Assembly: GCA_020442185.1 (NCBI GenBank)
Contig: JAGRKS010000010.1
Coordinates: forward strand, 16,454 to 80,453
Reading direction: 5' to 3'
Length of the DNA: 64,000 bases
Source: Hyphomicrobiaceae bacterium
GTDB lineage: Bacteria; Pseudomonadota; Alphaproteobacteria; Rhizobiales; Hyphomicrobiaceae
The position numbers and the translations under genes are program-made. Every line of letters starts with the position of its first letter. Positions within the stretch are counted from its first letter, which is position 1. Below are positions 6,062-30,839 of this stretch, one piece after another. The notes beneath the pieces were generated by a model. The model made no database searches. It saw only the letters and a program-made list of their open reading frames with translations, and was not told the origin of the DNA.

Positions 6062-6092
6062 GACGATGCTCCACAATTGTTGCGGCCACGTT

Positions 6093-7406: not shown

Positions 7407-7723
7407 TTCGATAGCGTCGCCGGTTGCGGCCGGCCGGAGGCTACGTCTTCAGCGGTAGAGCGCAACTATCGAAGGAGGTCGGTTGCTGTCGCATGCAACC
7501 AACTGGGGTGCCCGGTCGGCGAGGGCAGCACGCTAGGGTCTAAGGGGCTGCATGATGCGGCGCCGGTCGGCATCCGCACGCATGCGACCGCCTGCTTGCC
7601 GAACAATGGGACCCTCGCGTGATGGAGACTTGCGAAGTCCGCACGAAGTTCGTGGACGATGGGAGTGCATCGGCGTGCGATGCCGCTGCGACCGTCAGGA
7701 CGACGTCCGAGGAGCCGGCTGCG

Positions 7724-8464
7724 ATGCCGCGTCGTGGCCAGGATCTACTTGGCCCTGGATCCGGCACACCTGTCGTGATCGATCTCTGGCTGGTGGATCT
7801 GCAAGCCGGCGAGGCGGAGACGCAGCGGTTGTCCGGCATCTGCAGCCGAGAAGAGCGTGAGAAGGCGGCGACCTTTCTGCATTCAGCCGACAGCCGCCGC
7901 ACGCTCGTTTGTCGTGGGCGTCTCCGCGAGATCCTCGCTCACTATGTGGGCGCTCCCCCGAATGGCCTCACGATTGGTGTGGGCCGACGCGGCAAGCCCT
8001 TCCTTGCTGAGCCAGGGTCGATCAAGTGTCGTAACAGACAGCCGTTCTTCAACGTCAGCCACTGCGGCGAGAAGGCGGCGATCGCAATATCCCTGCAACA
8101 AGATGTCGGCGTCGATATCGAGATGCCGCGCCATGTCGAACCGGAGATTGCAACGCTCTACTTCGCGGCTGCCGAGGTGGAGGCGCTCAGTCGCCTCAGT
8201 GGCGCTGCGTGGCGTCTCGGCTTCTTTCGTTGTTGGACGCGCAAGGAAGCATTCCTGAAGCTGCTCGGTTGTGGCTTGGCACGTACGCTCGACAGCTTCT
8301 CGGTGCCGATCGATGCGGACGGCGAGGCGCTGTCTGTCAGCTGCGGGGCGGCGAGTGCCAGTCGCTGGCGCTTGCAGTCGTTCGAAGACGGGACCGGGCT
8401 GATCGGCGCGGTGTGCGTCGAAAGCGGAGCGCGGCCGGTGGTCGTCAGGCGGTATTTCGCATGA
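7724..8464 (+). CDS. Sfp-type 4'-phosphopantetheinyl transferase
   Basis: ORF track gives 7619..8464. ATG 7724 gives a 246-aa protein, the usual Sfp size. Motifs: FNVSHCGEKAAIAIS, VGVDIE, WTRKEAFLKLLG. Confidence 0.85.
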   Translation: MPRRGQDLLGPGSGTPVVIDLWLVDLQAGEAETQRLSGICSREEREKAATFLHSADSRRTLVCRGRLREILAHYVGAPPNGLTIGVGRRGKPFLAEPGSIKCRNRQPFFNVSHCGEKAAIAISLQQDVGVDIEMPRHVEPEIATLYFAAAEVEALSRLSGAAWRLGFFRCWTRKEAFLKLLGCGLARTLDSFSVPIDADGEALSVSCGAASASRWRLQSFEDGTGLIGAVCVESGARPVVVRRYFA

Positions 8465-8552
8465 AGGCGCAGGCAACCCTATCGCTGGTGTGCAATCGCG
8501 TCGCCCGACCTTCAGTCGCGTCGTCAGGACTAGGAATCGTCGAGGCGACAGG

Positions 8553-10004
8553 ATGACCTTGGAGCCGATCGGATTACTGACGCTGCTTGCGGGCTTGTTC
8601 ATCCTTGTGCGCGGGCCGGACGTCGGCATCCACCTGTTGTTGCTGGCGACGCTACTCGGCTCTGCCGCCGCGACCAATTTGCCGGCCGTCGGCAACGCCA
8701 GCATACCGCCGAGCCACCTCCTGCTTCTGTTCTATATCATATCTATGGCCAATCAGCGTGGTGGCGTGGCGACGGCTTTCGAGGCACTCCGCTTCCCCAA
8801 TGCCGGTTTCTGGCTCTTGCTGTTCGTCGTCTACGGCGTCCTGACCGCGTTGCTGCTGCCGCGCGTGTTCGCTGGGGAGACGGATGTGTTTTCCATCGCG
8901 CGCAGCGGCATCAAGCGCTACGGGATCGTGACGCGGTCGCTGTCCCCAACCGCCGCGAACATTACGCAGACGGTGTACCTCCTCGGTGACTTCGCGATGT
9001 TCCTCGCGGTAACCGTGCATATCATGCTTCGCGGCGCGAGAGCGGTCGTGAGCGGGCTGCTGCTTGCGTGCGCCGTAAACATCGGCTTCGCCCTGCTCGA
9101 TGTCGTGACTTTCGCGACGGGTACAGATGCGGTGCTCTCGGTTATCCGCAATGCCAACTATGCAATCCTTTCCGACGCATCCATCGCGGGACTTAAGCGC
9201 ATTGTCGGTTCGTTCCCGGAGGCTAGCGCATTCGGCACCGCAACAATGTTCCTGTTCGTGTTCTCGACAGAGATGTGGTTGCGCAATCGGCACAAGATGC
9301 TGACCAGTTCACTTGCGGTCATCTCGTTCCTGCTGCTCGTGTTGTCGACCTCCTCGTCGACGTACTTCGGTTTGGGGATCTATGCGGCGGTGTTCTACTT
9401 CCGCGCCGTCGCATATGTGATCCGTGGCGACGCCTCCTTGCGGATCGTACTGCTGGTGGTCGCGGCCCCCGTAGCATTCATTGTGCTTTCGAGCATGGTC
9501 ATGCTGATACCCGCGATCTGGCAAACGATTGTCGATCTCGTCGAGCGGACTGTCTCGAATAAGCTGTCGAGCCATTCCGGCATCGAACGCGGCAACTGGA
9601 ATTCCCAAGGCTTGCGCGTCTTCCTCGATACCGGCTTTCTCGGAGCCGGTGTCGGCAGTGTCCGCACATCGAGTTTCATCGTGGCTCTACTGGCGAACAC
9701 GGGGATCGTCGGCCTCATCACTTTCTTCGCTTTTGTATCTGCCGTTGTCGCCTCAGCGGTGCGGCGCCGGGCGAGCCACTATGGCGCCGAGCGTGCCTCG
9801 GCCGCATGGGCCGCGGTCAGCGCCCTGCCTGCTGCCTCCGTGGCGCTGAGCAGCGTCGATCTCGGACTCTTCTTCTTTTGCTGTGCCGCACTCGCTGCGG
9901 CGTCGAATGCATCGGTGCATCACGCGTTTCCCGCTGGTCGCGACGTGCCGAGGCGCATCGGGGGATATCACATCGATACGGTCGTCAACCCCTCGCGGGC
10001 GTGA
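8553..10004 (+). CDS. O-antigen ligase/Wzy-like polysaccharide polymerase (polytopic membrane protein)
   Basis: ORF track gives 8490..10004. ATG 8553 opens directly into the first TM segment (MTLEPIGLLTLLAGLFIL). More than 10 hydrophobic segments. The GAGVGSVRTSSFIVALLANTGIVGLITFFAF region resembles the Wzy_C/O-antigen ligase signature. Confidence 0.7.
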   Translation: MTLEPIGLLTLLAGLFILVRGPDVGIHLLLLATLLGSAAATNLPAVGNASIPPSHLLLLFYIISMANQRGGVATAFEALRFPNAGFWLLLFVVYGVLTALLLPRVFAGETDVFSIARSGIKRYGIVTRSLSPTAANITQTVYLLGDFAMFLAVTVHIMLRGARAVVSGLLLACAVNIGFALLDVVTFATGTDAVLSVIRNANYAILSDASIAGLKRIVGSFPEASAFGTATMFLFVFSTEMWLRNRHKMLTSSLAVISFLLLVLSTSSSTYFGLGIYAAVFYFRAVAYVIRGDASLRIVLLVVAAPVAFIVLSSMVMLIPAIWQTIVDLVERTVSNKLSSHSGIERGNWNSQGLRVFLDTGFLGAGVGSVRTSSFIVALLANTGIVGLITFFAFVSAVVASAVRRRASHYGAERASAAWAAVSALPAASVALSSVDLGLFFFCCAALAAASNASVHHAFPAGRDVPRRIGGYHIDTVVNPSRA

Positions 10005-10024
10005 AACGAAATGGAAGCACCGCC

Positions 10025-11776
10025 ATGAACCGAATTCAGCCACAGGACTATTACGAGATTGCGAGCCATGCGCCGCAGCAGGAGCGCGTGTTCGGACTGC
10101 AGGATATCGTTTGGTACTTGAAGTTCGCATGGCCGCGTATCCTGATTGCAGGCGCGATCGCGACCGGCATTGCCATGCTCTACCTGTCGTTCGCGCCGAG
10201 AACCTACACCGCGACAGCCAGCGTCATTTTCGAACCGAGTACCGGGCCGAACTTCGACCAGAACTCACGCTGGTTGGAGCCAAGTGCTGAGATGACGACA
10301 CGGATCGAGAGCCAGGTCGAGGTTATAAAGTCGGAGCAGATAGCAAGTGCCGTCGTCGCGGATCTCAAGCTCGTCGACGATCCCGAGTTTCTCCCGACGC
10401 CCGGAATGCTCGGGCGCGTTCGCGGGATGTTCAATTTCGTCTCCGGTTCGCAAGTGACGCTCAAACCTGAACAGAAGAAGGCTCTGGTGAGCTCGGGACT
10501 GCTGCGGCAGCTGTCGCTGCGCCGCATCGGCCTTTCGGCGGTGATCGAGGTGAGCTTCACGGCCAGAACGCCAACCAAGGCCGCGCGTGTCGCCAATGCC
10601 TTCATTGTGGCCTACATCGAAAGCGGGTTGAAGCAGAAGGCGGAAGCCGCGCGGGGTGGTAGCGTCTGGCTGCAGGATCGGCTCCAGGAACTGCGGACGA
10701 AGGCGTTCGATGCACTCCGCGAGGCGGAATTGTTCAAGCGGCGTGCTGGCGGCGAGGTCAGCGACTCGACGGTTCGTCTCGCGGAACTCGAGAGCGTGGC
10801 ACAAGCCTACCGGAGACTGTACGAGAATTTCTTCCTGAAGTTCGCCGAGACGCTGCAGCGGGTATCGTATCCCGTCACCGATGCGCGTCTGGTTTCGGCT
10901 GCGTCGCGGGATGCCGTTGCAAGTTCACCGAAGGCGACCCTCGTCCTGGCGTTTGCGCTTGCGTTGGGCGCCATGCTGGGAGGCGCTGTCGCGCTGTCCG
11001 AACTCGCTCTCGATCGGCGTGTGCGGGATTCCCGAACGGTGGCGGAAACCGGGCTTCCGCTGCTTGGTACGGTATCATCGGACGCAGCGCTTGCCGGTTC
11101 ACCGGGCATTGTCGCGGGCGATGATGTGTCGGAGGCTTCTGCCGAAATGCAGGGTGTGTTCCAGTCAACTGCGCTGACGCAGTTGCGGCCGATACATGTC
11201 GATTTGAGAAAGATCGCCAAGCCTGGGCGGCGGCGCGTCGGGATCGTATCGGTCGGGAGAGGCGCCGGGGCAACCACGATCGCAGCCAAACTCGCTCAAT
11301 TCTCGTCGGCTGTCGGCGACAAGGTTCTGCTTGTTGATGCAAGCGTCGAAGATCCCGCGTTGACGCGCATATTGGCGTCGGGAGTCACGCATGGCTTGAT
11401 CGAGGTTATGCGCGGATCAGCGACACCGGAGGATACGATTGTCGAGGTCGCGGCGTGTGGATGCAGCTTGATGCCGCTGGTTCGACGACCTGGCGATACG
11501 ATGACGCCGGGTCTCGGTATGAATACGGATGGAGGGCAGCAAAGACTGGCTGGACTGCTCGGACAGTTCGATATCAGCATCGTCGACCTCTCATCGATGC
11601 CTGATTCTCCCGAAGCTCGACTTATCGCGCCGAAGCTCGACGGCGTCGTGCTCGTCGCGCAGTTCGGGCGGACGCAGATCGATGCCTTGACCGATGCGGC
11701 GCTCGAGATTGGGCGCAACGGCGGATCTGTTCTCGGCGTCATACTCAACAAGTGCCCGGCGGGGTTGCGGATATAG
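10025..11776 (+). CDS. Polysaccharide co-polymerase (Wzz/GumC/ExoP-like) with a C-terminal P-loop-like domain that lacks the Walker A lysine
   Basis: ORF track gives 9806..11776. ATG 10025 (MNRIQPQDYY) has GGAAG upstream. A Wzz-type N-terminal TM (ILIAGAIATGIAMLYLSF, TYTATASVIFEP) is followed by a coiled-coil periplasmic region and a second TM. The cytoplasmic ParA/MinD-like domain reads GIVSVGRGAGATT. Confidence 0.8.
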   Translation: MNRIQPQDYYEIASHAPQQERVFGLQDIVWYLKFAWPRILIAGAIATGIAMLYLSFAPRTYTATASVIFEPSTGPNFDQNSRWLEPSAEMTTRIESQVEVIKSEQIASAVVADLKLVDDPEFLPTPGMLGRVRGMFNFVSGSQVTLKPEQKKALVSSGLLRQLSLRRIGLSAVIEVSFTARTPTKAARVANAFIVAYIESGLKQKAEAARGGSVWLQDRLQELRTKAFDALREAELFKRRAGGEVSDSTVRLAELESVAQAYRRLYENFFLKFAETLQRVSYPVTDARLVSAASRDAVASSPKATLVLAFALALGAMLGGAVALSELALDRRVRDSRTVAETGLPLLGTVSSDAALAGSPGIVAGDDVSEASAEMQGVFQSTALTQLRPIHVDLRKIAKPGRRRVGIVSVGRGAGATTIAAKLAQFSSAVGDKVLLVDASVEDPALTRILASGVTHGLIEVMRGSATPEDTIVEVAACGCSLMPLVRRPGDTMTPGLGMNTDGGQQRLAGLLGQFDISIVDLSSMPDSPEARLIAPKLDGVVLVAQFGRTQIDALTDAALEIGRNGGSVLGVILNKCPAGLRI

Positions 11777-11818
11777 CACCCGCTGGAGGGCCGCAGCGGA
11801 CTCGGCCCGGACGATGCG

Positions 11819-13705
11819 CTATGGCGCTGCGGTGGCAGCGGATGATGTCGGGCGAGACACCGGGATCACGATCGCCGATGGTCTCTCCGTGGCGAACGCT
11901 ATGGTCGTCGTTGCAATCCGACTCGACGTCTCGAGATGGTTTCCCCGGCCGGTATTGAGGTTGCGTTCGAGCCGCGGGAAGCTCGACGATGCGATATGCA
12001 GGCCGATGCGGTGACCGGCCGGAACTTCATACGCAATTGGCGGAAACCGCAGGTCGATATCGATGGGCTTGCCGATCGGCATATCTTGCGGCGCGTCGAA
12101 ACTTCTGCGGTAGCGCATGCGACGGACGCCTTGCTGTATCGGCAGCATGACCCCGTCGGGGTGGATGTCGAGCAGAGTGACGATCAGATCCGTATCAGGG
12201 ACATCGGTCGAAATCGTCAACTCGGCGGAGATATCGCCGATGATCGACAGTGGCGCATCGAGGGGCATCGAGCGGAAGCTCAAGAGGTCCGACCGCGCGT
12301 CATTGGGCCGTTGATCCAAGGGGCCCGCGCGCATGTTCGGATCACCGGTGCAGCAGATCGCACCGCCGATCGAGGGCGTCGGATCGGTTGGATCGTATTT
12401 ATACGTCGCACTGCCTGGTTGCGGCGGCGATGTCTGGAGCCGGCCATCAGGCGCAAGATAGAACCGCAGTTCGCGCGTATCCGCTGGCGGCCAGACGTTC
12501 GATGTCTGCCACCGGTCGGCGCCGAGTACGTAGAACGTATAGGGTGCGAGTTCAGGCATGGGCCCATCGCGAAGCCAATGGTCGAGCCACGATGCGTAAA
12601 GAGCGTCGTAGTCGAAGGCGGCGCTCTTTTCAATTTTCAGATCGCCCACTGCGCCAACGTCGAATGGTTCGGAGAATGTACAGTGGTTGCCAGGTCCGAT
12701 CACGACAGGCTGGTTGTCTCGCGCTCTGGCGTTCTCGGCGTTGGCACGCATCAGCGCCGCGATCTCGAACGTACCGCGAACGCCGAGATCCTGCCACGTA
12801 TTGACATGCAATGCTGGTGAGGCGAAGCGGTCGTTCGGCGCCAGATAGCCGAGCCGGTCCCAGTAGGCATCGTCGCCGAAATTCCTCATGAACGCTTCGA
12901 AATCCGTTGGAGTCCGGCGGTGTCGCGAGACGAGAGTTCCAGTCGGCAGCTCGCTGAGCACCGCCGCCGGATCGACGTCCGCTCCGGCCATCGCATCCGG
13001 AGTCTTGCCGCCTGAGAATGCGAACCAGCCGAAGCCGCTTGCAAGGGTCGGAATGCCGCCTTCGTAGAAGCCGAAGTAGCCCCGTGACGCGCCTCCTCTT
13101 CCGATAGCGCCGCCCGCCGCTTCAAGCAGCAGTGCGGTATGGTGCGGATTGCGCGCCTTTGCGAGAATTGCCTGGTGTTCGCCGAGGGCCGAGCACCCGA
13201 CCGTCGCCACCCGGCCATTCGACCACGATTGTGCGGCGATCCAGTCGAGCGTTGCAGCGCCATCGGATACGGCATGATCGTATGGGGCGAACACGCCTTC
13301 CGAACCAAAGCGCCCGCGCATGTCCTGCACAACCACTGCGTAGCCCCTCGGGCCAAATGCGTGGACCCATTGCAGCGCACCGCCATACGTCGACTTTCCA
13401 TACGGAAGCCTGACAAGCAAAGCAGGTGCCGGTGTCGCGCCCCGATCGGGCAGGTAGATGTCGGTCGCCAGGCGCGTTCCGTCGGGCATGGCGATCATGA
13501 CGTCGCGGCGCATCTCGATCCCCTCCCGCAGCGCTGCGATTTCGAGGCGGAAGACGCGAATGATGGCGCGCGCAGCATCGATATGCATGGCCGCGAAGGC
13601 CGCAGCCACGATGCCGACGGCCAGAACTGCGGTCGCGACGGCCGCGATGCGCCAACGCTGTTGTCCCGACCATTCGTTCCCCGTTCGTCTCCTGTTTGGA
13701 AGCAT
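11819..13705 (-). CDS. CocE/NonD-family alpha/beta hydrolase (peptidase S15-like), N-terminally membrane-anchored
   Basis: 628 aa. Contains MPDGTRLATDIYLP, VVVQDMRGRFGSEG and a GCSALGE nucleophile region, followed by a C-terminal jelly-roll-like part as in X-Pro dipeptidyl-peptidase C domains. N-terminal TM: IAAVATAVLAVGIVAAAFAA. Confidence 0.8.
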   Translation of the reverse strand: MLPNRRRTGNEWSGQQRWRIAAVATAVLAVGIVAAAFAAMHIDAARAIIRVFRLEIAALREGIEMRRDVMIAMPDGTRLATDIYLPDRGATPAPALLVRLPYGKSTYGGALQWVHAFGPRGYAVVVQDMRGRFGSEGVFAPYDHAVSDGAATLDWIAAQSWSNGRVATVGCSALGEHQAILAKARNPHHTALLLEAAGGAIGRGGASRGYFGFYEGGIPTLASGFGWFAFSGGKTPDAMAGADVDPAAVLSELPTGTLVSRHRRTPTDFEAFMRNFGDDAYWDRLGYLAPNDRFASPALHVNTWQDLGVRGTFEIAALMRANAENARARDNQPVVIGPGNHCTFSEPFDVGAVGDLKIEKSAAFDYDALYASWLDHWLRDGPMPELAPYTFYVLGADRWQTSNVWPPADTRELRFYLAPDGRLQTSPPQPGSATYKYDPTDPTPSIGGAICCTGDPNMRAGPLDQRPNDARSDLLSFRSMPLDAPLSIIGDISAELTISTDVPDTDLIVTLLDIHPDGVMLPIQQGVRRMRYRRSFDAPQDMPIGKPIDIDLRFPPIAYEVPAGHRIGLHIASSSFPRLERNLNTGRGNHLETSSRIATTTIAFATERPSAIVIPVSRPTSSAATAAP

Positions 13706-13720
13706 CAGGCTGGCCTTGTT

Positions 13721-17978: not shown

Positions 17979-18024
17979 TCCTGTTTCTTCGGTGCGTGAT
18001 CACTGGGCCGCGTCGGCGTCGGGA

Positions 18025-19599: not shown

Positions 19600-19653
19600 G
19601 CCGTCCCGCTGTTGAAGCCAGATAAGCACCGGGCGCCTAGCATGTCTCACCAC

Positions 19654-19917
19654 ACAAAGCTCCTGTGGCGCTGCAAAACAGCCGATGCGTTGTCGCGTCT
19701 GTTCTAATCAATGCCGAAATTGGTTTAGAGGCATCAGCCAAATTGGCGAGCCTAATGCAAAGGAGGTAGGCATTTCGCCCATTATTCTTCTCGCGTCGTC
19801 AGTGTGCATGCCCGGGTTGGCTCTTGCTGTTGACGAAGTCGGTATTGCAGTGCGGTTGCGCGTCGGCTTTCGTGGCTTGAGCACGGATGGATACCGGATC
19901 AAGCCTGCGAGGATGCG
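19654..19917. promoter_or_regulatory. Divergent promoter region between the Wzx/C-T-TE operon and the A-T/megasynthase operon
   Basis: A 264-nt non-coding gap between two divergently oriented long operons. It is relatively AT-rich for this window. No specific -35/-10 boxes or operator could be assigned by eye. Confidence 0.4.
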
Positions 19918-21849: not shown

Positions 21850-24800
21850 CAAACGTCGAAGCGGATGACGATGAATTCGGGCGTGAACAGTCCGATCCAT
21901 CAATGCAAGGGGCCATTGCGATCGTCGGTGTCGCGGGGCGCTTCCCCAAGGCGAAGACGATTGGCCAATTCTGGCAGAACCTCGTCGAGGGCCGAGACTG
22001 TGTCACCCACTTCGCGGCGCACGAGCTCGAGGATTGCTTCGACGATGAAACGCGCTGTTCTGACGCGTTCGTAAAAGCGCGCCCCATCGTTGACGACGTC
22101 GAGCTGTTCGACGCCGAGTTCTTCGGCATGTTCTCGCGGGAAGCGGCGCTGACCGATCCGCAGCACCGGTTGTTTCTCGAATGCGCCTGGGAAGTGCTCG
22201 AGAGCGCGGGCTATGATCCTGCTGCCTATCCCGGCGCGATCGGTGTTTTTGCTGGCTGTAGCTTGAGCACGTATCTTCTCAACCACGTCTGCACGGATCG
22301 ATCGGTTGTCGAGCGGATCGCGTCGGACTACCAGCTCGGCAGCTTTCCGATCCTGATCGGCAGTATCCAAGATGTGCTGGCGACGCGCGTCGCATACAAA
22401 CTCGATCTTCGCGGACCGGCCGTCACGCTCGGTTCGGCGTGTTCGACGTCGGCCGTCGCGATCGTCCAGGCCTGCCAGAGCCTCATGCTGTACCAGGCCG
22501 ACATGGCGATCGCGGGCGGCGTGTCGGTCTCGTTCCCGCAGAAGCGGGGCTACATGTATCTCGAAGGTGGCATGGGAGCCGAAGGCGGTGTGTGCCGCCC
22601 ATTCGATGCCAACGCACGTGGCACGATATTCGGCAGCGGTTGTGGTGCGGTGCTGCTGAAGCGGCTCGAGGATGCGATTGCCGATCGCGATCATATCTAT
22701 GCGGTGGTGCGCGGGTTCGGCATCAACAACGACGGCGGCAACAAGGTGGGCTTCACGGCACCGAGCGTCGATGGACAATCCGCCTGCATCGCCGCCGCGC
22801 ACGCCATGGCCGACATCGACGCCGGCACGATCGGCTATGTCGAGGGGCACGGAACCGCGACTCCGCTCGGCGATCCAATTGAATTCGCGGCACTGAAGCA
22901 GGCATTCCAGGGATCGACGGCAAGACGCGGATACTGTGCGATCGGCTCATCGAAGGCCAACATCGGCCACCTCGATGCGGCGGCAGGCGTCACGGGCCTG
23001 ATCAAGGCCGCTCTCTGCCTCGATAGCAAGATGATACCGCCGCTGGCGAATTTCGAAACGCCGAATCCGGCGCTCGATGTCGAGAACAGCCCCTTCTACT
23101 TTCCGAAATCGCTTCAGCCGTGGGAATGCAGAGAAAGTCCTCGGCGCGCTGGTGTGAGTTCGTTCGGTGTCGGCGGCACGAATGTGCATATCGTTCTCGA
23201 AGAGGCGCCGGCGCGCGCGATCGAAGTGCAAGACGATGCAATCGATAGGCCCCATGTGTTGCCGCTGGCGGCGCGCAGCGAAACCGCGCTGGCCGCGATG
23301 CGCACGGCACTCGCCGATCATATCACCGCGACGCCTGATGTGAGGCTTGCGGACATCGCCTTCACCCTTCAGTCGGGTCGCAAGCCATTCGCGTACCGCA
23401 GTGCCGTTGTGGCACGCTCAGCCGACGAGGCCGTTAGGCAGTTGCGCGCGGCACCCGCGATCACCGGGAATTCAGCGGATAACTTCGCGGACGGCGGTGC
23501 AGGGGCCGCATTCATGTTTCCCGGTCAGGGCGCGCAATATCCCGGCATGGGGCGGGCGCTCTACGAGAGCGAGCCGATCTTCCGCGATGTCGTCGATCAG
23601 GGAGATGAGATACTGCGGCCGGTGATCGGCGAGAGCATGGTCTCGTTGCTCTACGGCGAGACCCCGACAGATGATGAGGCACCACATCCGATTCGCTCGA
23701 CGATCCTCGCGCAGCCAGCGCTTTTCATAATCGAGCACGCCGTCGCGAGACTGTGGATGAGCTACGGCGTAACGCCGACGGCGATGATCGGGCACAGCGT
23801 CGGCGAGTTCGTTGCGGCGTGCCTCGCTGGCGTGTTCTCCTATGAAGATGGCTTGAAGTTGATTGCCGCGCGCGGACGACTGATGCAGTCGGCGCCCGGC
23901 GGTGCGATGCTTGCCGTCCGGGCTGACGAGGCGGCGGTGCGCGGACTTCTCTCCCAAGATTCCGAGATTGCCGCCATCAACGCGCCGAACCTCTGTGTCG
24001 TTGCTGGTCCTTTTGCAGCGATAGATGCGCTCGAGGCGCGGCTCGAATTGGCAGGTCTTATCGGCCGGCGGCTGCACACATCGCACGCATTCCACTCCGC
24101 TATGATGGACCCTGTCGTTCCGGCTCTTGCCGACGTCGTTGCCGGCATGCGGCTTAACGCACCGGAAATCCCCTACATCTCTTGTGTCAGCGGCACCTGG
24201 ATCACCGCGGCCCAGGCGACCGACCCCAGCTATTGGGCCGGGCACTGTCGCGCGACGGTTCGCTTCGCCGACGGAATCGCGGTGCTGCGCGAGAATGGCG
24301 ACGTTGCAATGATCGAGTGCGGCCCCGGCCGAACGCTTGCGACATTCGCGGCGCAATCGCCAGGCAAGGCGCCGAACGGTCGTCGTCGCGCGGTCATAAC
24401 GAGCATGCCCGAGTTCGCGGATGCGGAGAGATGCAGGGAGCATTTCCTGGAGGCGCTGGCGCGGTCGTGGTGCGATGGCAGCGCCATTTCCTGGTCGCGT
24501 CTTGAGGGCGCTGGCAGCCGTAGGGTGCCATTGCCGACGTATCCCTTTGAACGCTCGCGGCATTGGATCGATGCGCCGGCCTCGGCTTCGCGCAGCGGCA
24601 CGGGTGTGCCATCGGCGGCGATCCAGCAGGCAGCCGCGCCGGCGGTCGCAACGGGGGCGATGAACGCTGCCAGTCTCGGAAGTGATGCATGTTCGATGCC
24701 GACAGCGGCGGTCGCAACTGCGGTGGTCGCGACGACCACAGTCGATCAATCCGTTCAACAGGAAAACGACAACATGAGCGAACGTGAGCGCGCGTTGGGT

Positions 24801-27800
24801 CAGCAGGTTCTGAGGCTTCTGGAAAAGCTGTCGGGTGCATCGCTCGATAGCGCGGCACTCGATACCAGCTTCGTCGAGCTGGGCTTCGATTCCCTCTTCC
24901 TCGGCCAGCTTGCGACGGAAGTGAACAAGGCCTTCGGCGTCAAGATCGCGTTCCGCAAGCTGCTGCGCGAGTATCCATCGGCGACGGCACTGGCGGCGCA
25001 TCTTGCTGCGACGCTGCCCGCTTCGGCTGCGCCCCCGCCAATCGCCGCGGATGGCGGTGCCGCGCCCCTTGCACCAACCGCACCTGTTGCCCAGGCCGTC
25101 GCTGTCACAGCGACCGCGCCTGTCGCTGTGAACCCGAATGCGACGGCGACCGTGACGCTGCAGAAGGCGCCGCAGCCGATCGAGAGCGCGGTTCCCGGCG
25201 CGGCTTCGAGCAGTCTCATCGAAACCGTGCTGCGCGATCAGATGACTGCCATGCAACAGCTGATGTCGCGGCAACTCGACCTTCTGCAAGGCACCGACTT
25301 ACGCCAGAGCGCTGCTGTCGCGGCAACGCCACCCGCAGACGCCCGGCCTGTCGCGACGAACGTCGAAGCGGGCTCGCCGCATGCAACGACGTCGCCGGCG
25401 CCCGCGGTCCAAGTGATTTCCAGCGGCGATGCAGGCGGGGGAGCGGAACGGTCCCGCTTCGATGCCTACAAGCTCGTCAAGGGCGGCAAGGATACGCGCG
25501 GGACGACGCCGGCGCAGGAGAAATTCATCAGCAGTCTCATTCAGCGCTACAACGCACGGACCGCGTCGTCGAAGAGCTTCACGCAGCAGCATCGCAAGGT
25601 GCTGGCTGATCCGCGCACAGCCAATGGCTTCCGCTCCGAGTGGAAGGAGATGGTGTATCCACTTGTCTGTCCGCGATCGAAAGGCTCGAAGATCTGGGAC
25701 CTCGATGGGAACGAATACGTCGATCTCGTCAACGGCTACGGTCCGATCGCCTTCGGGCACGCACCGGAGTTCGTAACCAAGGTCGTCGCGGAACAGCTCG
25801 AGAAGGGATTCGCGATCGGTCCGCAAAGTCCGCTTGCGGGCGAGGTTGCCGACCTCTTCGTCGAGATGACGGGCAATGAGCGCGTCACGTTCTGCAATAC
25901 GGGTTCGGAAGCCGTGATGGCCGCGATGCGTCTGTCCCGCGCTGTGACTGGGCGCTCGCGCATCGTCACTTTTGCGGGGGCCTATCACGGCCAGTTCGAC
26001 GAAGTGATCGTCAAGGGTAATCCGAAGGGCCGCGCGCCGGGTGCCAACCCGGCGGCCTCGGGCATTCCGCCCGAACTTGTCTCCAACATAATCGTGCTGC
26101 CTTACGGCACGCCCGAAAGCCTCGAATTCATCCGCGCGCACGCAGGCGACCTCGCCGCCGTATTGGTCGAGACGGTGCAAAGTCGGCGACCCGGCTTCCT
26201 GCCCGAGGCGTTCCTTCGCGAACTCAGGGAGATCACCGCCACGTCGGGTGCCGCTCTGATCTTCGACGAGGTCGTGACGGGCTTCCGCGTGCATCCAGGT
26301 GGCATGCAGAGCTATCTCGGCATCCGCGCTGATCTCGCGACCTACGGCAAAGTGGTTGGCGGCGGCCTTCCGGTCGGCGCACTCGCGGGCAAGGCCGAAT
26401 TCATGGATGCGCTCGACGGCGGCCATTGGCAATACGGCGATGATACGGTGCCCGAGGTTGCGCCGACATTCTTCGCTGGCACATTCGTGCGGCATCCGCT
26501 CGTTCTGGTTGCGATGAAAGCGGTGCTCGAACATCTCAAGGCCGAAGGACCGGCGCTTCAGGAACGATTGGCCGAGCGCACGCGCGGCCTCGTCGGCGAT
26601 ATCCGCGCGGCCTTCGCGCGGCGTGGCATCAACGCAAGCATCGAAACGTTCAGCAGCTATTTCCATATCGACCTTTCAGGCTGCGGCCCGCTTGCGGCGC
26701 TGTTTTATCCGCTCATGCGGCTCAACGGCATTCATATGCAGGAAGGTTTCCTCGGATTCCTGACGACAGCGCACAGCGATGCGGATCTGGCGCTTATCGT
26801 CAGAGCTGTCGAGCGCAGTCTCGACGAACTGGTCGCGGCGGGGATCCTCGGCGCCGGTGATGTGGGTGCAGTGGCTTTGGCGGCACCCGCAACCACAACG
26901 AAACCGAAACCGGCAATGGAACCGGCACCGGCCGCGGCTGCGCTTGCGGCCACGGCCTGCGACGAGTGCGATGCAGCGCTGCCAGTCGAGCAGGTGGTGC
27001 CGCTGACGGAGGTGCAGCGTGAGATCTGGATGGCGGCGCAGATGGGCGATAGGGCGTCGTGCGCGTTCAACGAATCGGCGAGTCTCCGGCTCGAGGGCGC
27101 CGTGGACGTCGACGTGCTCATCGAAGCCGTCAATGATGTGGTCGGTCGGCATGACGCGCTGCGCGCCAGCTTCGGCGCGACCGGCGAGCGCATGCGTGTC
27201 GCCTCGGCCGTGCGTCTCGACGTCGCGCTCGTGGATTTCTCCCGCGCGCCTGATCCGCAAGCAGACTTCGCGGCGCTGATCGCAGCGGATGCCGCAACGC
27301 CGTTCGATCTCGCGAATGGCCCGTGTGCGCGTGCGATTGTCGTCAAGGTGTCCGAGACGCAGAGCATTCTCGTCTTCACGGCACACCACATCGTCTGCGA
27401 CGGCTGGTCCATGAACATCATCATGAGCGAGCTTTCGTCATTCTACGATGCGCGCAAACGTGGTTCGACGGCAGCCCTTGCGCCGGCACTGTCCTATTGC
27501 CGCTACGCGCGCGATGAGGCTGCGAAGGGTGGTGCCGACGCGGATGTCGAAGCCTTCTGGCTCGAGCAATACAAGACGGTTCCTGCGTGGCCGGAACTGC
27601 CGAGCGACAGGCCGAGACCAGAGCGGCGCACCTACGGTGGGGCGACGTACTGCGATCAGATCGACCGGGATCTCTATCGGCAGGTCAAGCAGGCCGGCGC
27701 GCGGGAAGGCTGCACGCTGTTCGTCACGCTGTTCGCGGCGTTCCAGGTCTTGATAGGGCGGCTAGCACAACACGACGACGTCGTTGTCGCCGTGCCCATG

Positions 27801-30185
27801 GCCGGGCAAAGCCTCGTCGACGACGGGGATACCCTGGTCGGGCATTGCGTGAACTTCCTTCCGCTCCGTGTACCATTCGCCTTCGACACCGCGTTCTCCC
27901 GGCATCTCAAGTCCGTGAACGAGCATGCGCAGGAGGCCTTCGACCGGCAGGACTATACACTCGGAACGCTCGTGCGCCGCCTGGCGCTGCCGCGTGACAT
28001 GAACCGGCTGCCATTGACCGAGCTGCAGTTCAATCTCGAGAAGATCGGCGGCAACCTCGAATTCGCCGACCTCGAAGCGTCCATCGGTGCCAACCCGAAA
28101 TCGTTCTCGAACTTCGACATCTTTTTCAACGTCATCGAGAGCGCTGTTGGCCTGCGCATCGAGTGTGACTACAACACCGACATTCTCGATCGCGACACCA
28201 TTGCACGCTGGGTATCGCACTATTGCAATCTGCTGCGCGAAGTTGTCGCGAACGCGGACCAGCCGATTGGTGCGATCCCGCTGCTCAGCGAGCAAGAACG
28301 CACCTGGTTGATTGATGATCTCAACAAGACAGCCTGTGTCTTTCCGGTAGGAGCAACCGCGCACCGCCTCATCAGCGACCAGGCGAAACGTGTGCCAGCG
28401 AACATCGCCGTTCAGTACGCAGACGCCACCATGACCTATGCCGAGCTCGAGGACGCCGCCAATCGCATGAGCCGCCATCTTTCGCGGCTGCTGCCGGCGC
28501 CCGGATCTCGCGTCGCGGTCGCACTCGATCGATCTCCCGACATGCTGGTGACGCTGCTTGCCATCATGAAATCGGGACACGCCTACGTGCCGCTCGATCC
28601 CGATCATCCCGAAGAGCGACTGCGTCTCGTGCTCGAAACCGCGAGGCCGGCGGCGCTCGTTTGCAACCGTCCTGCGATCGCGGATCTCGCCCCATCGGGC
28701 TGCGCCCTCGTCCACATCGATCGGGATCGTGGGGCAATCGCCGCCGAGGCGAGCATGCCACCGGCGTGTGCCGATGCATCGCCGGCAGATCCCGCGTACG
28801 TGATCTTCACGTCTGGGTCCACCGGCACCCCGAAGGGTGTCGAGGTGCCGCACCGCGCACTGACGAACTTCCTGCTGTCCATGCAGGCGTCGCCCGGCTT
28901 CAGTGCCGAAGATACGATCGTTGCGGTGACGACCGTGTCGTTCGACATCGCTGTTCTCGAGCTGTTGCTGCCGCTTGTCGCCGGCGGCCGCGTCGTTATT
29001 GCAAGCCGGGATGATGTGAAAGGTGGCTTCGGTCTGGTCGACCTGATCGCCTCGAGCGGCGCGACGATGCTGCAGGCAACGCCGTCGCTGTGGCGGATAC
29101 TGCTCGAGGCCGGCTTCAGGCCGCGCAGCGGATTGAAGATGCTTTGCGGTGGCGAACCACTGCCGCGTGATCTGGCGGATGCGCTCGTCGCGACCGGCGG
29201 GGAACTCTGGAACATGTATGGCCCGACGGAGACGACGGTATGGTCGAGTATGGCGAAAGTCGGGACTGGCCCCATCGTGATCGGTGAGCCGATCGCCAAT
29301 ACGCAGCTGCATATTCTCGATCAACGGGACCAGGTGCAGCCGATCGGCATACCTGGACAGCTGCACATCGGCGGCAATGGACTGGCGAACGGCTACTTCG
29401 ATAGGCCCGATCTGACGCAGAACGCATTCGTCGAGATCGCTCTCGCGAGGCGTGGCACGTCACGGCTTTATCGTACCGGCGATCTTGCCGTCCGGCGTGC
29501 CGATGGATCGATCGATTTGCTCGGACGCATCGACCAGCAAGTCAAATTGCGCGGCTTCCGCATCGAACTGGGCGAGATCGAGGCGGCCATCAGGGCGGTT
29601 CCTGGAGTGACCGACGCGGCCGTGGCCTTGCGCTCAGTGGCTGGCAAGGACCCGCGTCTCGTCGGCTACTATGTGCTCGCGGAAAATTCGCGGCTGGCGA
29701 CGTCGGATCTCTCCGAACGATTGACGCATGCCCTTCCCGACTACATGGTGCCGACGGCATGGAAGCAACTCGATCGATTGCCGATGACGCCAAACGGCAA
29801 ACTCGATCGCAAGGCGCTTCCCGATGTCGAGCAAGCTGGTGTCATCGTTCGTGACGTGCCGCAGTCCCTGCCGTCGACGCCGACCGAGATTGCGCTCGCG
29901 GCGATCTGGCAGGATGTGCTCGGGCTCGAGAGCATCGGTGTTCACGATGGCTTGTTCTCGCTCGGCGCGGATTCCCTACAGGTGTTCCGCATCGCCGCGC
30001 GGTTTGGTGAGTGTGGCATCAAGCTGCAAGCGAAGCATCTGCTGGAGCATCCGACAATCGCCGAGCTTGCAGCATTTGCCGACGCGCAAGTTGGTGGTGA
30101 TGCAGCGGTAGGTGGCAAAGTTGCATCTCTGCGCGAGTTCCGCCACGGCGCCAGGCGGCGCGGGCTCATTGGCGGGGCAGCGTGA
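21846..30185 (+). CDS. Hybrid PKS-NRPS megasynthase, KS-AT-ACP-AMT(PLP aminotransferase)-C-A-T
   Basis: 2779 aa.
- KS about 21903-23190: GSACSTS Cys199 at 22440, EGHGTATPLGD, KANIGHL.
- AT about 23511-24430: GHSVG Ser651 at 23796, HAFH at 24084-24095.
- ACP about 24800-25020: LGFDSL Ser1016 at 24891.
- An Ala/Pro-rich linker follows.
- Class-III aminotransferase about 25490-26830: YGK Lys1502 at 26349.
- C about 26990-28300: HHIVCDG at 27384.
- A about 28350-29830: YVIFTSGSTGTPKG, NMYGPTE, YRTGDLAVRRADGSIDLLGRIDQQVKLRGFRIELGEIE, PNGKLDRKAL.
- T about 29885-30095: LGADSL Ser2710 at 29973.
- No terminal TE or R domain. Confidence 0.95.
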   Translation: MTNVEADDDEFGREQSDPSMQGAIAIVGVAGRFPKAKTIGQFWQNLVEGRDCVTHFAAHELEDCFDDETRCSDAFVKARPIVDDVELFDAEFFGMFSREAALTDPQHRLFLECAWEVLESAGYDPAAYPGAIGVFAGCSLSTYLLNHVCTDRSVVERIASDYQLGSFPILIGSIQDVLATRVAYKLDLRGPAVTLGSACSTSAVAIVQACQSLMLYQADMAIAGGVSVSFPQKRGYMYLEGGMGAEGGVCRPFDANARGTIFGSGCGAVLLKRLEDAIADRDHIYAVVRGFGINNDGGNKVGFTAPSVDGQSACIAAAHAMADIDAGTIGYVEGHGTATPLGDPIEFAALKQAFQGSTARRGYCAIGSSKANIGHLDAAAGVTGLIKAALCLDSKMIPPLANFETPNPALDVENSPFYFPKSLQPWECRESPRRAGVSSFGVGGTNVHIVLEEAPARAIEVQDDAIDRPHVLPLAARSETALAAMRTALADHITATPDVRLADIAFTLQSGRKPFAYRSAVVARSADEAVRQLRAAPAITGNSADNFADGGAGAAFMFPGQGAQYPGMGRALYESEPIFRDVVDQGDEILRPVIGESMVSLLYGETPTDDEAPHPIRSTILAQPALFIIEHAVARLWMSYGVTPTAMIGHSVGEFVAACLAGVFSYEDGLKLIAARGRLMQSAPGGAMLAVRADEAAVRGLLSQDSEIAAINAPNLCVVAGPFAAIDALEARLELAGLIGRRLHTSHAFHSAMMDPVVPALADVVAGMRLNAPEIPYISCVSGTWITAAQATDPSYWAGHCRATVRFADGIAVLRENGDVAMIECGPGRTLATFAAQSPGKAPNGRRRAVITSMPEFADAERCREHFLEALARSWCDGSAISWSRLEGAGSRRVPLPTYPFERSRHWIDAPASASRSGTGVPSAAIQQAAAPAVATGAMNAASLGSDACSMPTAAVATAVVATTTVDQSVQQENDNMSERERALGQQVLRLLEKLSGASLDSAALDTSFVELGFDSLFLGQLATEVNKAFGVKIAFRKLLREYPSATALAAHLAATLPASAAPPPIAADGGAAPLAPTAPVAQAVAVTATAPVAVNPNATATVTLQKAPQPIESAVPGAASSSLIETVLRDQMTAMQQLMSRQLDLLQGTDLRQSAAVAATPPADARPVATNVEAGSPHATTSPAPAVQVISSGDAGGGAERSRFDAYKLVKGGKDTRGTTPAQEKFISSLIQRYNARTASSKSFTQQHRKVLADPRTANGFRSEWKEMVYPLVCPRSKGSKIWDLDGNEYVDLVNGYGPIAFGHAPEFVTKVVAEQLEKGFAIGPQSPLAGEVADLFVEMTGNERVTFCNTGSEAVMAAMRLSRAVTGRSRIVTFAGAYHGQFDEVIVKGNPKGRAPGANPAASGIPPELVSNIIVLPYGTPESLEFIRAHAGDLAAVLVETVQSRRPGFLPEAFLRELREITATSGAALIFDEVVTGFRVHPGGMQSYLGIRADLATYGKVVGGGLPVGALAGKAEFMDALDGGHWQYGDDTVPEVAPTFFAGTFVRHPLVLVAMKAVLEHLKAEGPALQERLAERTRGLVGDIRAAFARRGINASIETFSSYFHIDLSGCGPLAALFYPLMRLNGIHMQEGFLGFLTTAHSDADLALIVRAVERSLDELVAAGILGAGDVGAVALAAPATTTKPKPAMEPAPAAAALAATACDECDAALPVEQVVPLTEVQREIWMAAQMGDRASCAFNESASLRLEGAVDVDVLIEAVNDVVGRHDALRASFGATGERMRVASAVRLDVALVDFSRAPDPQADFAALIAADAATPFDLANGPCARAIVVKVSETQSILVFTAHHIVCDGWSMNIIMSELSSFYDARKRGSTAALAPALSYCRYARDEAAKGGADADVEAFWLEQYKTVPAWPELPSDRPRPERRTYGGATYCDQIDRDLYRQVKQAGAREGCTLFVTLFAAFQVLIGRLAQHDDVVVAVPMAGQSLVDDGDTLVGHCVNFLPLRVPFAFDTAFSRHLKSVNEHAQEAFDRQDYTLGTLVRRLALPRDMNRLPLTELQFNLEKIGGNLEFADLEASIGANPKSFSNFDIFFNVIESAVGLRIECDYNTDILDRDTIARWVSHYCNLLREVVANADQPIGAIPLLSEQERTWLIDDLNKTACVFPVGATAHRLISDQAKRVPANIAVQYADATMTYAELEDAANRMSRHLSRLLPAPGSRVAVALDRSPDMLVTLLAIMKSGHAYVPLDPDHPEERLRLVLETARPAALVCNRPAIADLAPSGCALVHIDRDRGAIAAEASMPPACADASPADPAYVIFTSGSTGTPKGVEVPHRALTNFLLSMQASPGFSAEDTIVAVTTVSFDIAVLELLLPLVAGGRVVIASRDDVKGGFGLVDLIASSGATMLQATPSLWRILLEAGFRPRSGLKMLCGGEPLPRDLADALVATGGELWNMYGPTETTVWSSMAKVGTGPIVIGEPIANTQLHILDQRDQVQPIGIPGQLHIGGNGLANGYFDRPDLTQNAFVEIALARRGTSRLYRTGDLAVRRADGSIDLLGRIDQQVKLRGFRIELGEIEAAIRAVPGVTDAAVALRSVAGKDPRLVGYYVLAENSRLATSDLSERLTHALPDYMVPTAWKQLDRLPMTPNGKLDRKALPDVEQAGVIVRDVPQSLPSTPTEIALAAIWQDVLGLESIGVHDGLFSLGADSLQVFRIAARFGECGIKLQAKHLLEHPTIAELAAFADAQVGGDAAVGGKVASLREFRHGARRRGLIGGAA

Positions 30186-30190
30186 ACCCC

Positions 30191-30228
30191 GCGCTGCGTC
30201 CGGCCCGCCACTTGCAGCCGGACGCAGC
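30191..30228 (+). terminator. Perfect 13-bp stem-loop immediately after the megasynthase stop codon (terminator-like, no U-tract)
   Basis: CGCTGCGTCCGGC (30191-30203) pairs perfectly with GCCGGACGCAGCG (30216-30228) around a 12-nt loop, 6 nt after the TGA at 30183-30185. The following sequence is AAAATTGG, so it is not a canonical intrinsic terminator. Confidence 0.4.
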
Positions 30229-30602
30229 GAAAATTGGACGCCGCGTCTGCCACGACTTGAGTTCCTTAAATTCGTGAATCCCCCTCGGTGGCAGGCCGGG
30301 CAATGGCTGCTGCGACGTGGAGACGGCTGCCCATCTGGTATCTGGCCCGGCGGCTTCCCTTGTTTGAGCCTTGGATAGGGCTTGCGTCGTGTGGTAGTTG
30401 GAAGACTTCGAACTTCGCGGACAAACGAGGGTTGGGGGGCGCCGCTGCGCCGGCTTCTGGCGCGATACGCGGCGCGCTTCGTCGATGCGGCCGGTCGATG
30501 TGTGGGGCGTGCGAAAATGCCGGGCTCAAAACATGCCGAACCAGATCGCCCCTGTTCTTGCCGTTCGTTCGCCGGTCTAGATTGATGTGAGCATAGTGTG
30601 CG

Positions 30603-30839
30603 ATGGCCACCTGGAATTTCATAGTTGCCGGTATCGTTGGCCTTGCTCTCGGCAGCCGCTATCGCATTGGCGCGCTGATAGGGGCTACCTTGTTGTTTGC
30701 CGCAGCCATGGCCGCGGCATTCTCGATGGGTCGGCTCGGTATCGGGGAGGGCGTACTTGTCTTGGTGACGCTTCAACTCAGCTATTTCGCAGGGCTCGTC
30801 CTGAGCTCGCTATGGCGACGCCGCTCTGGGCTGGACTAG
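30603..30839 (+). CDS. Possible small membrane protein (78 aa, two hydrophobic segments)
   Basis: ATG ORF with two clear hydrophobic stretches (FIVAGIVGLALG..., VLVLVTLQLSYFAGLVLSSL). There is no convincing Shine-Dalgarno sequence and no recognisable family. Confidence 0.35.
   Translation: MATWNFIVAGIVGLALGSRYRIGALIGATLLFAAAMAAAFSMGRLGIGEGVLVLVTLQLSYFAGLVLSSLWRRRSGLD

Follow-up and report, generated by a model that had tools for sequence, protein, structure and literature searches.

A thiotemplate peptide-polyketide cassette interleaved with a Wzx/Wzy exopolysaccharide locus in a Hyphomicrobiaceae bacterium: candidate machinery for peptide decoration of a polysaccharide

The first 37 kb of a 64,000-nucleotide stretch of DNA from a soil or water bacterium of the Hyphomicrobiaceae, known as a metagenome-assembled genome (contig JAGRKS010000010.1, positions 16,454 to 80,453; the whole stretch is called the window here) contain an exopolysaccharide (EPS) locus of the Wzx/Wzy type in which the genes of a hybrid nonribosomal peptide synthetase-polyketide synthase (NRPS-PKS) are interleaved with those for polysaccharide assembly (Table 1). 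This interleaving is real and non-random. The interpretation that we favour, in which we place about as much belief as doubt, is that an ordinary alphaproteobacterial Wzx/Wzy EPS cluster is combined with a portable thiotemplate cassette, whose product, a short diamino-acyl-glycyl unit, would be loaded on to the lipid-linked repeat unit before it is flipped across the membrane. The cassette appears to comprise a 4'-phosphopantetheinyl transferase (PPTase), an adenylation-thiolation (A-T) loading protein, a megasynthase, a protein with condensation (C), thiolation and thioesterase (TE) domains (C-T-TE), a GINT1-like protein, a CocE/NonD hydrolase, its own Wzx flippase and perhaps one family 4 glycosyltransferase (GT4). 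Functional coupling of peptide and EPS is well supported by comparative genomics. Covalent decoration of the EPS we infer by reasoning from it, and in the same way we infer what the product looks like, what accepts it and what the two accessory proteins do.

Because NRPS-PKS and EPS genes are found together in many bacteria, the peptide is probably bound to the sugar chain or exported along with it. One genome per GTDB species was scanned for the megasynthase and the best 80 loci were kept; window proteins were mapped on the loci by tBLASTn and iterative hidden Markov model searches, and EPS genes were scored within 10 kb. Full-length megasynthase homologues, approximately 40 to 53% identical, occur in many lineages, and the trio of A-T loader, megasynthase and C-T-TE protein is mostly contiguous, with a PPTase gene nearby. 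At least one of Poly_export, Wzy, Wzz, Wzx and Bac_transf lay within 10 kb in 40 of 82 loci, and at least two in 29 of them. A core EPS gene was present in the 10-kb flanks of 36 of the 65 loci with a synthase of the aminotransferase (AMT) type, compared with 2 of 15 other NRPS-PKS loci, a control set in which part of the contigs are short (Fisher p = 0.004).

The recurring cassette consists of A-T, a megasynthase with ketosynthase (KS), acyltransferase (AT), T, AMT, C, A and T domains (KS-AT-T-AMT-C-A-T), C-T-TE, PPTase and the GINT1-like protein and/or the membrane-anchored CocE/NonD hydrolase. It lies in EPS loci, with varied gene orders, in the Rhizobium tropici group, Rhizobium sp. CCGE531, roseobacters, Rhodobacter, Nevskia and Acidobacteriota. 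On a plasmid of Rhizobium sp. CCGE531 (locus L082) the genes run from pyruvyl transferase, Wzy, a GH16 glycoside hydrolase, NRPS, NRPS/PKS, a 'condensation domain protein', GINT1-like protein and PPTase to DegT aminotransferase, GMC oxidoreductase, methyltransferase, flippase, sugar transferase, GT4, Wzz and exporter. Plasmids of Loktanella salsilacus (L083) and Rhodobacter sp. CZR27 (L084) carry this gene set plus the CocE/NonD hydrolase, and in Pseudosulfitobacter pseudonitzschiae (L088) the cassette lies in a chromosomal EPS locus. Pfam places an outer-membrane polysaccharide export protein (OPX), Wzz, Wzy_C and a membrane acyltransferase (Acyl_transf_3, AT3) immediately upstream of the loader in Nevskia. 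In a metagenome-assembled genome of Acidobacteriota (L017) it detects a kinase-like ATPase, Bac_transf, GT4, family 2 glycosyltransferase (GT2), polysaccharide deacetylase, GT4 and UDP-glucose dehydrogenase upstream, and C-C-T-TE, an alpha/beta hydrolase, PPTase and GT4 downstream. Homologues of the PPTase, the GINT1-like protein and the hydrolase (family S15) are found solely in cassette-bearing loci, and further cassette relatives, in Ruegeria marina and Roseovarius, were seen with the GINT1-like protein as marker. The Acidobacteriota locus (4902-9470 and 19975-25505) is a variant, with a two-C C-C-T-TE protein and a hydrolase like platelet-activating factor acetylhydrolase or PETase instead of S15.

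Relatedness of the backbone genes and of the cassette is discordant. A locus whose Wzy is 65% identical (L085) has exactly the gene order of the window, all thiotemplate genes included. Five compact EPS loci are cassette-free, namely L086 (Wzy 51% identical), L090 (47%), L089 (46%), L087 from Bradyrhizobium sp. 157 (40%) and L091 from Alsobacter (37%), and in the 21 kb viewed for each of these five there are no thiotemplate genes. Between them they contain Wzy, Wzz, OPX, Bac_transf, GT2, GT4, AT3, GerE, C-methyltransferase and DUF4214. It is in cassette-free loci that Wzy, Wzz, OPX, Bac_transf, GT2, the second GT4 (GT4b), AT3, the C-methyltransferase and the DUF4214 protein of the window have their nearest, or sole, kin: close relatives of OPX include L091 and L089, GT2 homologues occur in L087, L086 and L089, AT3 in L086, the DUF4214 protein in L091 and the C-methyltransferase in L089 and L090, and the best matches of GT4b after L085 are cassette-free (364 to 401 bits). 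The window Wzy is only 28 to 35% identical to those of the Rhizobium and Rhodobacterales cassette loci. Nothing that corresponds to A-T, megasynthase, C-T-TE, PPTase, GINT1-like protein or S15 hydrolase is found in these cassette-free loci. GT4a leans to the cassette by a small margin, its best matches besides L085 being in the cassette-bearing loci L014, L006, L056, L082, L088 and L084 (244 to 254 bits) and its best cassette-free match scoring 233 bits, and the LuxR/GerE regulator has kin in both types of locus to about the same degree.

The flippase departs from this backbone pattern. The window Wzx shows 34 to 37% identity (203 to 233 bits) to those of the Rhizobium and Rhodobacterales cassette loci and 22 to 26% (62 to 68 bits) to those of the cassette-free close relatives, and its type is common to twelve loci. 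The window has a single wzx; the different wzx that its relatives have beside the OPX gene is gone. Sequence similarity thus supports a flippase that was inherited with the cassette and not with the EPS backbone genes. Wzx flippases discriminate between repeat-unit structures, and exchange of the flippase therefore suggests an altered lipid-linked substrate. A PS_pyruv_trans gene stands directly upstream of wzy in L086, L087, L089 and L090, in the slot held by the PPTase gene in the window; these four loci also carry a GH16 gene. An earlier reading of this DNA, made from the letters alone (the sequence-only reading), had reasoned that relatives with the same EPS locus but no NRPS-PKS genes would point to a simple insertion. 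Such relatives exist (L086, L087, L089, L090 and L091), but simple insertion is not borne out because the flippase has been exchanged, the resident wzx is gone, the PPTase gene occupies the pyruvyl transferase slot and the thiotemplate genes lie at three sites.

At these three sites the thiotemplate genes are tightly packed with EPS genes, in agreement with the earlier statement that they do not form one block. On the minus strand the row is wzx, C-T-TE, GINT1-like and S15 hydrolase. The distance from the wzx stop to the C-T-TE start is 46 nt for a GTG start, the value given previously, and 58 nt for an ATG start; the C-T-TE and GINT1-like genes overlap by 41 nt and the S15 hydrolase gene follows after 15 nt. 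The CocE/NonD hydrolase and the GINT1_N protein make the thiotemplate operon larger than was first supposed. On the plus strand the PPTase gene does head the wzy-wzz unit, with gaps of 88 nt (PPTase stop to wzy ATG) and 20 nt, and in L085 the PPTase-wzy gap is just 9 nt. The reported ATGA overlap of loader and megasynthase was checked in the sequence and is present. A terminator scan found no terminator-like site at the junctions of wzx/C-T-TE/GINT1-like/S15 or PPTase/wzy/wzz; promoter and terminator scans were otherwise at background level, and the divergent region between wzx and the loader contains a single, weak sigma-70-like site (minus strand, 19808-19781). Thiotemplate genes are presumably co-transcribed with wzx and with wzy and wzz. 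Recurrence of the gene set in EPS loci, shared operons and a co-inherited flippase together favour the original proposal of joint production of peptide-polyketide and polysaccharide.

The assembly line starts with an amino acid. The A domain of the loader (~20005-21456, with T at ~21544-21735) matches the amino-acid adenylation model TIGR01733 with 378 bits against a cut-off of 317, has Asp235 and carries the specificity code DVRNIGATIK. Its residues R239, N278 and I299 are reminiscent of the aminoadipate code of ACV synthetase, a tentative likeness that leaves DVRNIGATIK unassigned. In the megasynthase, the KS (21912-23057) has its Cys and both His, and the AT (23511-24407) has the motifs GHSVG and HAFH, which by established rules indicate malonyl-CoA. 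The acyl carrier protein domain (ACP, ~24798-25010), with its carrier serine within LGFDS, is followed by a class-III, HemL-like AMT according to Pfam and NCBIfam (25656-26831), a C domain with the motif HHIVCDG (26988-28304), an A domain (28377-29801) whose code DILQLGMVWK is essentially the textbook glycine code, and a T domain (29895-30077). The four carrier serines of the assembly line are intact. The glycine code of the elongation A domain is invariant in every family member found. The loader code varies: it is of valine type (DAFWLGGTFK) in many members, of threonine type (DFWNIGMVHK) in some, DAFFLGVVFK in the R. tropici group and different again in others. From domain logic the predicted core product would be a first amino acid extended with malonate and transaminated at the beta position, giving a 3,4-diamino acyl unit, followed by glycine. 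The possibility of an iturin-like lipopeptide was ruled out, the loader being an amino-acid A domain.

The C-T-TE protein has an LCL-like C domain (~16581-17897), closest among PDB structures to the LCL-type C domain of TycC, a T domain (~16215-16409; GGHS, serine intact) and a TE (~15399-16085). In the nucleophile elbow of the TE, GLCVNG, Cys replaces Ser, and an alignment shows that this Cys is kept in all but one or two of 17 family members. The His of WHED and the Asp of IDSWAPG accompany it in the window and closer relatives; the WHED His is missing from the Rhodobacterales members L029, L063 and L083. Cys thioesterases of ObiF (obafluorin) and SulM (sulfazecin) form a strained beta-lactone or beta-lactam from a C-terminal beta-hydroxy or beta-amino residue. 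The likeness to ObiF and SulM lies in the Cys-for-Ser exchange of the elbow. They differ in that the PDB match to ObiF is limited to the C domain and that the predicted C-terminal residue here is glycine or undefined.

Two accessory proteins of the cassette may link the peptide to a sugar and act on it afterwards. AlphaFold2 models of the GINT1-like protein are confident (pLDDT 92 for the window protein and 91 for a second model). The C-terminal half forms a beta-propeller of five blades similar to those of GH117, GH43, GH130 and GH32 (Foldseek E = 2e-8), and the N-terminal domain resembles Fmt, ArnA, WbkC, WlaRD and FdtF (Foldseek E = 1e-6 to 1e-4, TM-score ~0.45-0.5). The formyltransferase fold of Fmt and the sugar N-formyltransferases acts on aminoacyl and amino-sugar substrates. 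A protein modelled with a sugar-binding fold and a fold that handles aminoacyl or amino-sugar groups may couple peptide and sugar. At least 192 proteins match this GINT1-like protein over its full length (Rhizobium, Pseudaminobacter, Chelativorans, Ruegeria, Roseovarius, Rhodovulum and Pseudosulfitobacter are among the carriers), and a library of 1.84 billion holds 932 representative clusters at E ≤ 1e-30. The S15 hydrolase has cocaine esterase and alpha-amino-acid ester hydrolase as its closest solved structures. Its catalytic domain presumably faces the periplasm because there is an N-terminal transmembrane anchor, which follows basic residues and is conserved among homologues.

In the proposed pathway the loader would activate an amino acid, the identity of which depends on lineage, KS and AT would extend it with malonate, the aminotransferase would convert the beta-keto group to an amine and so yield the 3,4-diamino acyl unit, and the C-A-T module would add glycine. 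The C-T-TE protein, with its Cys thioesterase, would finish and off-load the chain. A short cationic acyl-peptide would thus be handed over, on the cytoplasmic side of the membrane, to a sugar within the repeat unit linked to undecaprenyl pyrophosphate (Und-PP), probably assisted by the sugar-binding beta-propeller protein. The cassette-type Wzx would flip the modified repeat unit, and the resident Wzy, Wzz and OPX would polymerise and export such units. The anchored hydrolase, presumably periplasmic, might trim or remodel the substituent.

Several observations weigh against decoration of the EPS in this way. The terminal C domain reads HQSVFDG, with Gln for the second (catalytic) His, in the clade of the window; HQ was considered as a family hallmark and rejected, since outside the window only the Rhizobium clade and L063 have it, with HH in roseobacter and distant members. 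The C-T-TE protein has a carrier without a cognate A domain. The residues invariant in the GINT1-like protein do not include the catalytic Asn and His of true formyltransferases, so that its formyltransferase-fold domain may act in another way or not be a catalyst at all. The window encodes neither a sugar aminotransferase nor a deacetylase. Enzymes that make sugar amines do lie near the cassette in variants, namely DegT in Rhizobium and the polysaccharide deacetylase in Acidobacteriota; the DegT/DnrJ/EryC1 sugar aminotransferase and the GMC oxidoreductase that adjoin the Rhizobium PPTase (L082 32923-36051), both missing from the window, hint at an amino-sugar acceptor. A cassette-type Wzx is not universal: Rhodobacter sp. 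CZR27 (L084 25286-26689) has another type, closer to the cassette-free flippases, and the link between Wzx and cassette is therefore frequent only. Finally, about half of the related megasynthase loci have no EPS gene within 10 kb, and EPS loci are hot spots of recombination and gene exchange, so that part of the co-location could be passive; these last two points, like the fact that close EPS-locus relatives work without the cassette, suit a free metabolite, which is taken up below.

A secreted small glyco-peptide is a different outcome of much of the same chemistry, and one that we think rather unlikely. The peptide would be attached to one or a few Und-PP-linked sugars and flipped by the cassette Wzx, after which the hydrolase might set it free in the periplasm, much as in the proposal for Collimonas carenaemin; the EPS genes would supply no more than lipid-linked sugar chemistry. 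A cassette with its own flippase, perhaps its own GT4 and a specific membrane-anchored hydrolase, presumably periplasmic, is what such a pathway would have, and the minimal roseobacter clusters are described as NRPS, PKS, glycosyltransferase and PPTase only (PMC4337385). Carenaemins, too, are diffusible molecules of ~0.8 kDa that depend on a Wzx/Wzy locus (PMC8313283). The locus itself argues the other way. There is a single wzx in the window and the OPX-side wzx of the relatives is missing, so the polymer pathway would have no flippase unless the cassette Wzx serves it, and the PPTase gene is in one unit with wzy and wzz.

It is improbable that an independent cluster for a free metabolite landed by recombination in a hypervariable EPS locus and that its interleaving has no biochemical meaning. 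Against the points already conceded to it stand recurrence of the association over several orders and at least three phyla with differing gene orders, its enrichment relative to other NRPS-PKS loci, operons common to thiotemplate and EPS genes, overlaps of thiotemplate genes with adjacent genes, a flippase that co-varies with the cassette and a cassette-specific protein with a sugar-binding fold. Traces of a recent landing are also missing: G+C is even (0.61 to 0.65) across the thiotemplate genes with no step, the window has no mobile-element scars, tRNA genes or Rfam elements, its flanking repeats are at chance level, and a search for near-identical DNA in plasmids found none.

A peptide-polyketide end-group of the polymer, whether primer, terminator or membrane or cell-surface anchor, is very improbable: the cassette adjoins the priming transferase gene in several loci and the C-T-TE carrier without cognate A domain could hold a non-amino-acid acceptor, but a normal Bac_transf priming enzyme is present, and an exchanged Wzx with a retained Wzy fits a change of repeat unit better than one of the chain end. 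Lipid or anchor variants are unlikely, and the 'anchor' and 'glycolipopeptide' options of the sequence-only reading are not supported, because the loader is an amino-acid A domain and no fatty acyl-AMP ligase, starter-C signature or other lipid-loading domain was found in the assembly line.

Full-text literature searches found no characterised member of the cassette family, which agrees with the earlier failure to match the arrangement to a characterised pathway. An orphan cluster of roseobacters consists of an NRPS, a PKS hybrid, a glycosyltransferase and a PPTase, and the passages that mention it call its product uncharacterised (PMC4337385 and PMC5014874, citing Martens et al. 2007); it was reported in 28 of the 57 sequenced roseobacter genomes then examined (PMC4337385). 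This four-gene content is also found in the window, and in Pseudosulfitobacter (L088) as well as Rhodobacter sp. CZR27 (L084) the four genes are neighbours. Compared by description, the orphan cluster probably belongs to the cassette family because homologous cassettes occur in roseobacters. Those passages mention no Wzx/Wzy/Wzz/OPX context, flippase link, glycine code or Cys thioesterase.

Carenaemin of Collimonas arenae Cal35 requires the cpl PKS-NRPS cluster, of KS/AT/AMT type, and a separate Wzx/Wzy locus, and in the model put forward by its authors the peptide is joined to a lipid-linked sugar unit before flipping (PMC8313283). The likeness lies in a hybrid synthase that starts with KS/AT and aminotransferase and yields a beta-amino unit, and in a cluster that includes a PPTase and a polysaccharide-type tailoring gene. 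However, the two loci are distant in Collimonas and interleaved in the window. The cpl cluster has genes like those of polyunsaturated fatty acid (PUFA) synthases and three A domains (Gln, Ser and Leu), whereas Pfam detects no PUFA-type genes in the window, which has just the two A domains with codes DVRNIGATIK and DILQLGMVWK (glycine) and an amino-acid starter. The product of the Collimonas system is a diffusible antifungal of small size, not shown as part of a polymer.

The module order KS-AT-ACP-AMT-C-A-T matches that of MycA (iturin/mycosubtilin) and McyE (microcystin). Such lines start from a fatty-acid or polyketide chain and release free cyclic lipopeptides; in contrast, the window line has an amino acid as starter, two or three modules and an EPS-locus setting. 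In Dlt D-alanylation and with the tetronate of Vibrio cholerae O1, an adenylating enzyme and a carrier supply a non-sugar substituent to a surface glycopolymer. Dlt adds one amino acid by extracytoplasmic transfer with an MBOAT protein (DltB), whereas the window encodes a multi-module NRPS-PKS with KS, AMT, two C domains and TE, and Pfam finds no MBOAT in its first 37 kb. Acyl_transf_3 is present, but cassette-free loci have it too. The dedicated Wzx suggests attachment before flipping. Pks13, whose TE acts on trehalose, and PapA acyltransferases transfer carrier-bound acyl groups to a sugar hydroxyl, and lincosamide synthetase is a precedent for carrier-bound aminoacyl transfer to an amino sugar (PMC4351081). 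There is no specific homology to any of these past generic TE and C folds, the Pks13 TE giving a local NCBIfam match of 27 bits.

A broader view is possible, although we hold it more tentatively than decoration in the window itself: the cassette would stand for a class of polysaccharide modification that has gone unrecognised, namely a portable mini NRPS-PKS with flippase, spread over several phyla, that gives peptide-decorated and possibly zwitterionic EPS diversified by the loader, and it would explain the roseobacter cluster. The parts are known throughout, and it is confirmation of the chemistry that would make them a new class; what is added here is the amino-acid loader, the invariant glycine code, the Cys thioesterase, the recurrence of the cassette and a flippase that travels with it. 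If this is true, thiotemplate chemistry and Wzx/Wzy glycan assembly, usually separate worlds, are joined in a modular and horizontally shared manner, and bacterial EPS has a new kind of non-sugar substituent that bears on biofilms, Rhizobium symbiosis and alga-associated roseobacters. The roseobacter orphan cluster would gain a testable function. A route to programmable decoration of polysaccharides is suggested because loader specificity varies naturally and the glycine module is fixed. Carriers of the cassette are cultured and genetically tractable, which opens the hypothesis to direct test.

Table 1. Features of the first 37 kb of the window, with gene calls based on Pfam and NCBIfam profile searches of the window open reading frames
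Feature	Position	Strand	Assignment	Basis
OPX outer-membrane polysaccharide export protein	165-2021	-	backbone	Poly_export + SLBB (Pfam, NCBIfam)
GT2 glycosyltransferase	2056-2925	-	backbone	Pfam
GT4a, GT4 glycosyltransferase	3249-4538	+	possibly cassette-linked	Pfam
GT4b, GT4 glycosyltransferase	4688-6112	-	backbone	Pfam
Membrane O-acyltransferase (AT3)	6093-7406	-	backbone	Pfam Acyl_transf_3
Sfp/HetI-type 4'-phosphopantetheinyl transferase (PPTase)	7619-8464, alternative start 7724	+	cassette	Pfam ACPS + AASDHPPT_N; NCBIfam HetI-like
Wzy-like polymerase	8553-10004	+	backbone	homologues, transmembrane segments, context
Wzz/PCP chain-length protein, degenerate P-loop domain	10025-11776	+	backbone	Pfam Wzz + GNVR, NCBIfam
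CocE/NonD (S15) serine hydrolase, N-terminal membrane anchor	11819-13705	-	cassette	Pfam; TIGR00976, 286 bits
GINT1-like protein, predicted formyltransferase fold + five-bladed beta-propeller	13721-15331	-	cassette	Pfam GINT1_N
C-T-TE protein	15291-17966 (ATG) or 17978 (GTG)	-	cassette	Pfam
Wzx flippase, cassette type	18025-19653	-		Pfam Polysacc_synt_3, 6.6e-32; NCBIfam MOP flippase models
Divergent intergenic region between wzx (-) and A-T loader (+), presumed promoters	19654-19917	.		sequence
A-T loading protein	19918-21849	+	cassette	Pfam; TIGR01733
KS-AT-T-AMT-C-A-T megasynthase	21846-30185	+	cassette	Pfam, motifs, specificity codes
Priming polyprenyl-phosphate hexose-1-phosphate transferase	31019-31987	-	backbone	Pfam Bac_transf, 1.2e-60
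LuxR/GerE-family regulator	32394-33146	-		Pfam
Sugar C-methyltransferase	33434-34954	-	backbone	Pfam Methyltransf_13/14
Secreted DUF4214-repeat protein, weak glycoside hydrolase-like N-terminal part	34958-36985	-	locus edge	Pfam

All parts of a Wzx/Wzy pathway are found in the window, namely the priming transferase, Wzx, a Wzy-like protein, Wzz (a polysaccharide co-polymerase, PCP) and OPX, and the profile searches bear out each gene and domain named in the first map of EPS and thiotemplate genes. The priming transferase matches WbaP/EPS_sugtrans models of NCBIfam with 257 to 297 bits across its C-terminal domain. The Wzy-like protein has no Pfam match; it has approximately 10 hydrophobic (transmembrane) segments, a conserved position upstream of wzz and 223 homologues, part of which are named O-antigen-ligase-like or carry PF04932, and by family and context it is assigned as the putative Wzy polymerase. 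The label 'ExoP-like' fits the next protein in that Wzz and GNVR are present, but not in its kinase part. The sequence of its C-terminal P-loop is GRGAGATT, the last 30 residues are devoid of Tyr and NCBIfam kinase models score below cut-off; it is probably inactive as a bacterial tyrosine kinase because both the Walker-A lysine and the C-terminal Tyr cluster are missing. The description of the protein at the locus edge as 'glycanase-like' was not upheld: Glyco_hydro_cc is matched below threshold only (E = 4e-4), the solid matches are two DUF4214 repeats, and a PDB sequence search found no relative. The locus ends at the housekeeping gene tex, which starts at 37434. The Tex protein is 100% identical to an NCBI protein from a metagenome-assembled genome of a Hyphomicrobiaceae bacterium and about 78% identical to its next relatives, from Hyphomicrobium and Hyphomicrobiaceae; the scaffold is also deposited in ENA among metagenome contigs.

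OPX is unusually long (618 amino acids) and has an HlyD-like coiled-coil stretch (TIGR01843, residues 174-386) after Poly_export/SLBB; its L085 homologue shows HH_AprE. The sugar C-methyltransferase starts with a tail rich in Lys and Pro (KKPGRKPEQKKKKKKPQKKPEP...), and its homologues in L089 and L090 are fusions with a dehydratase. G+C at 31-35 kb is 0.56 to 0.59, lower than in the remaining locus (0.61 to 0.65). Immediately after the megasynthase, a small open reading frame (30597-30836, plus strand) encodes approximately 75 residues with two to three hydrophobic segments and no family match. Curli-type secretion genes (CsgG/HfaB-, CsgF- and CsgH-like) adjoin the NRPS-EPS locus in Rhizobium sp. 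CCGE531 (L082 2727-5068) and Loktanella salsilacus (L083 1-222). Genes at 40-64 kb of the window have no relation to the EPS/thiotemplate locus; among these are an adenylate-cyclase/AAA/TPR signalling protein (52886-56014, plus strand) and a fusion of Lipase_3 and Peptidase_S8 (59457-62123, minus strand).

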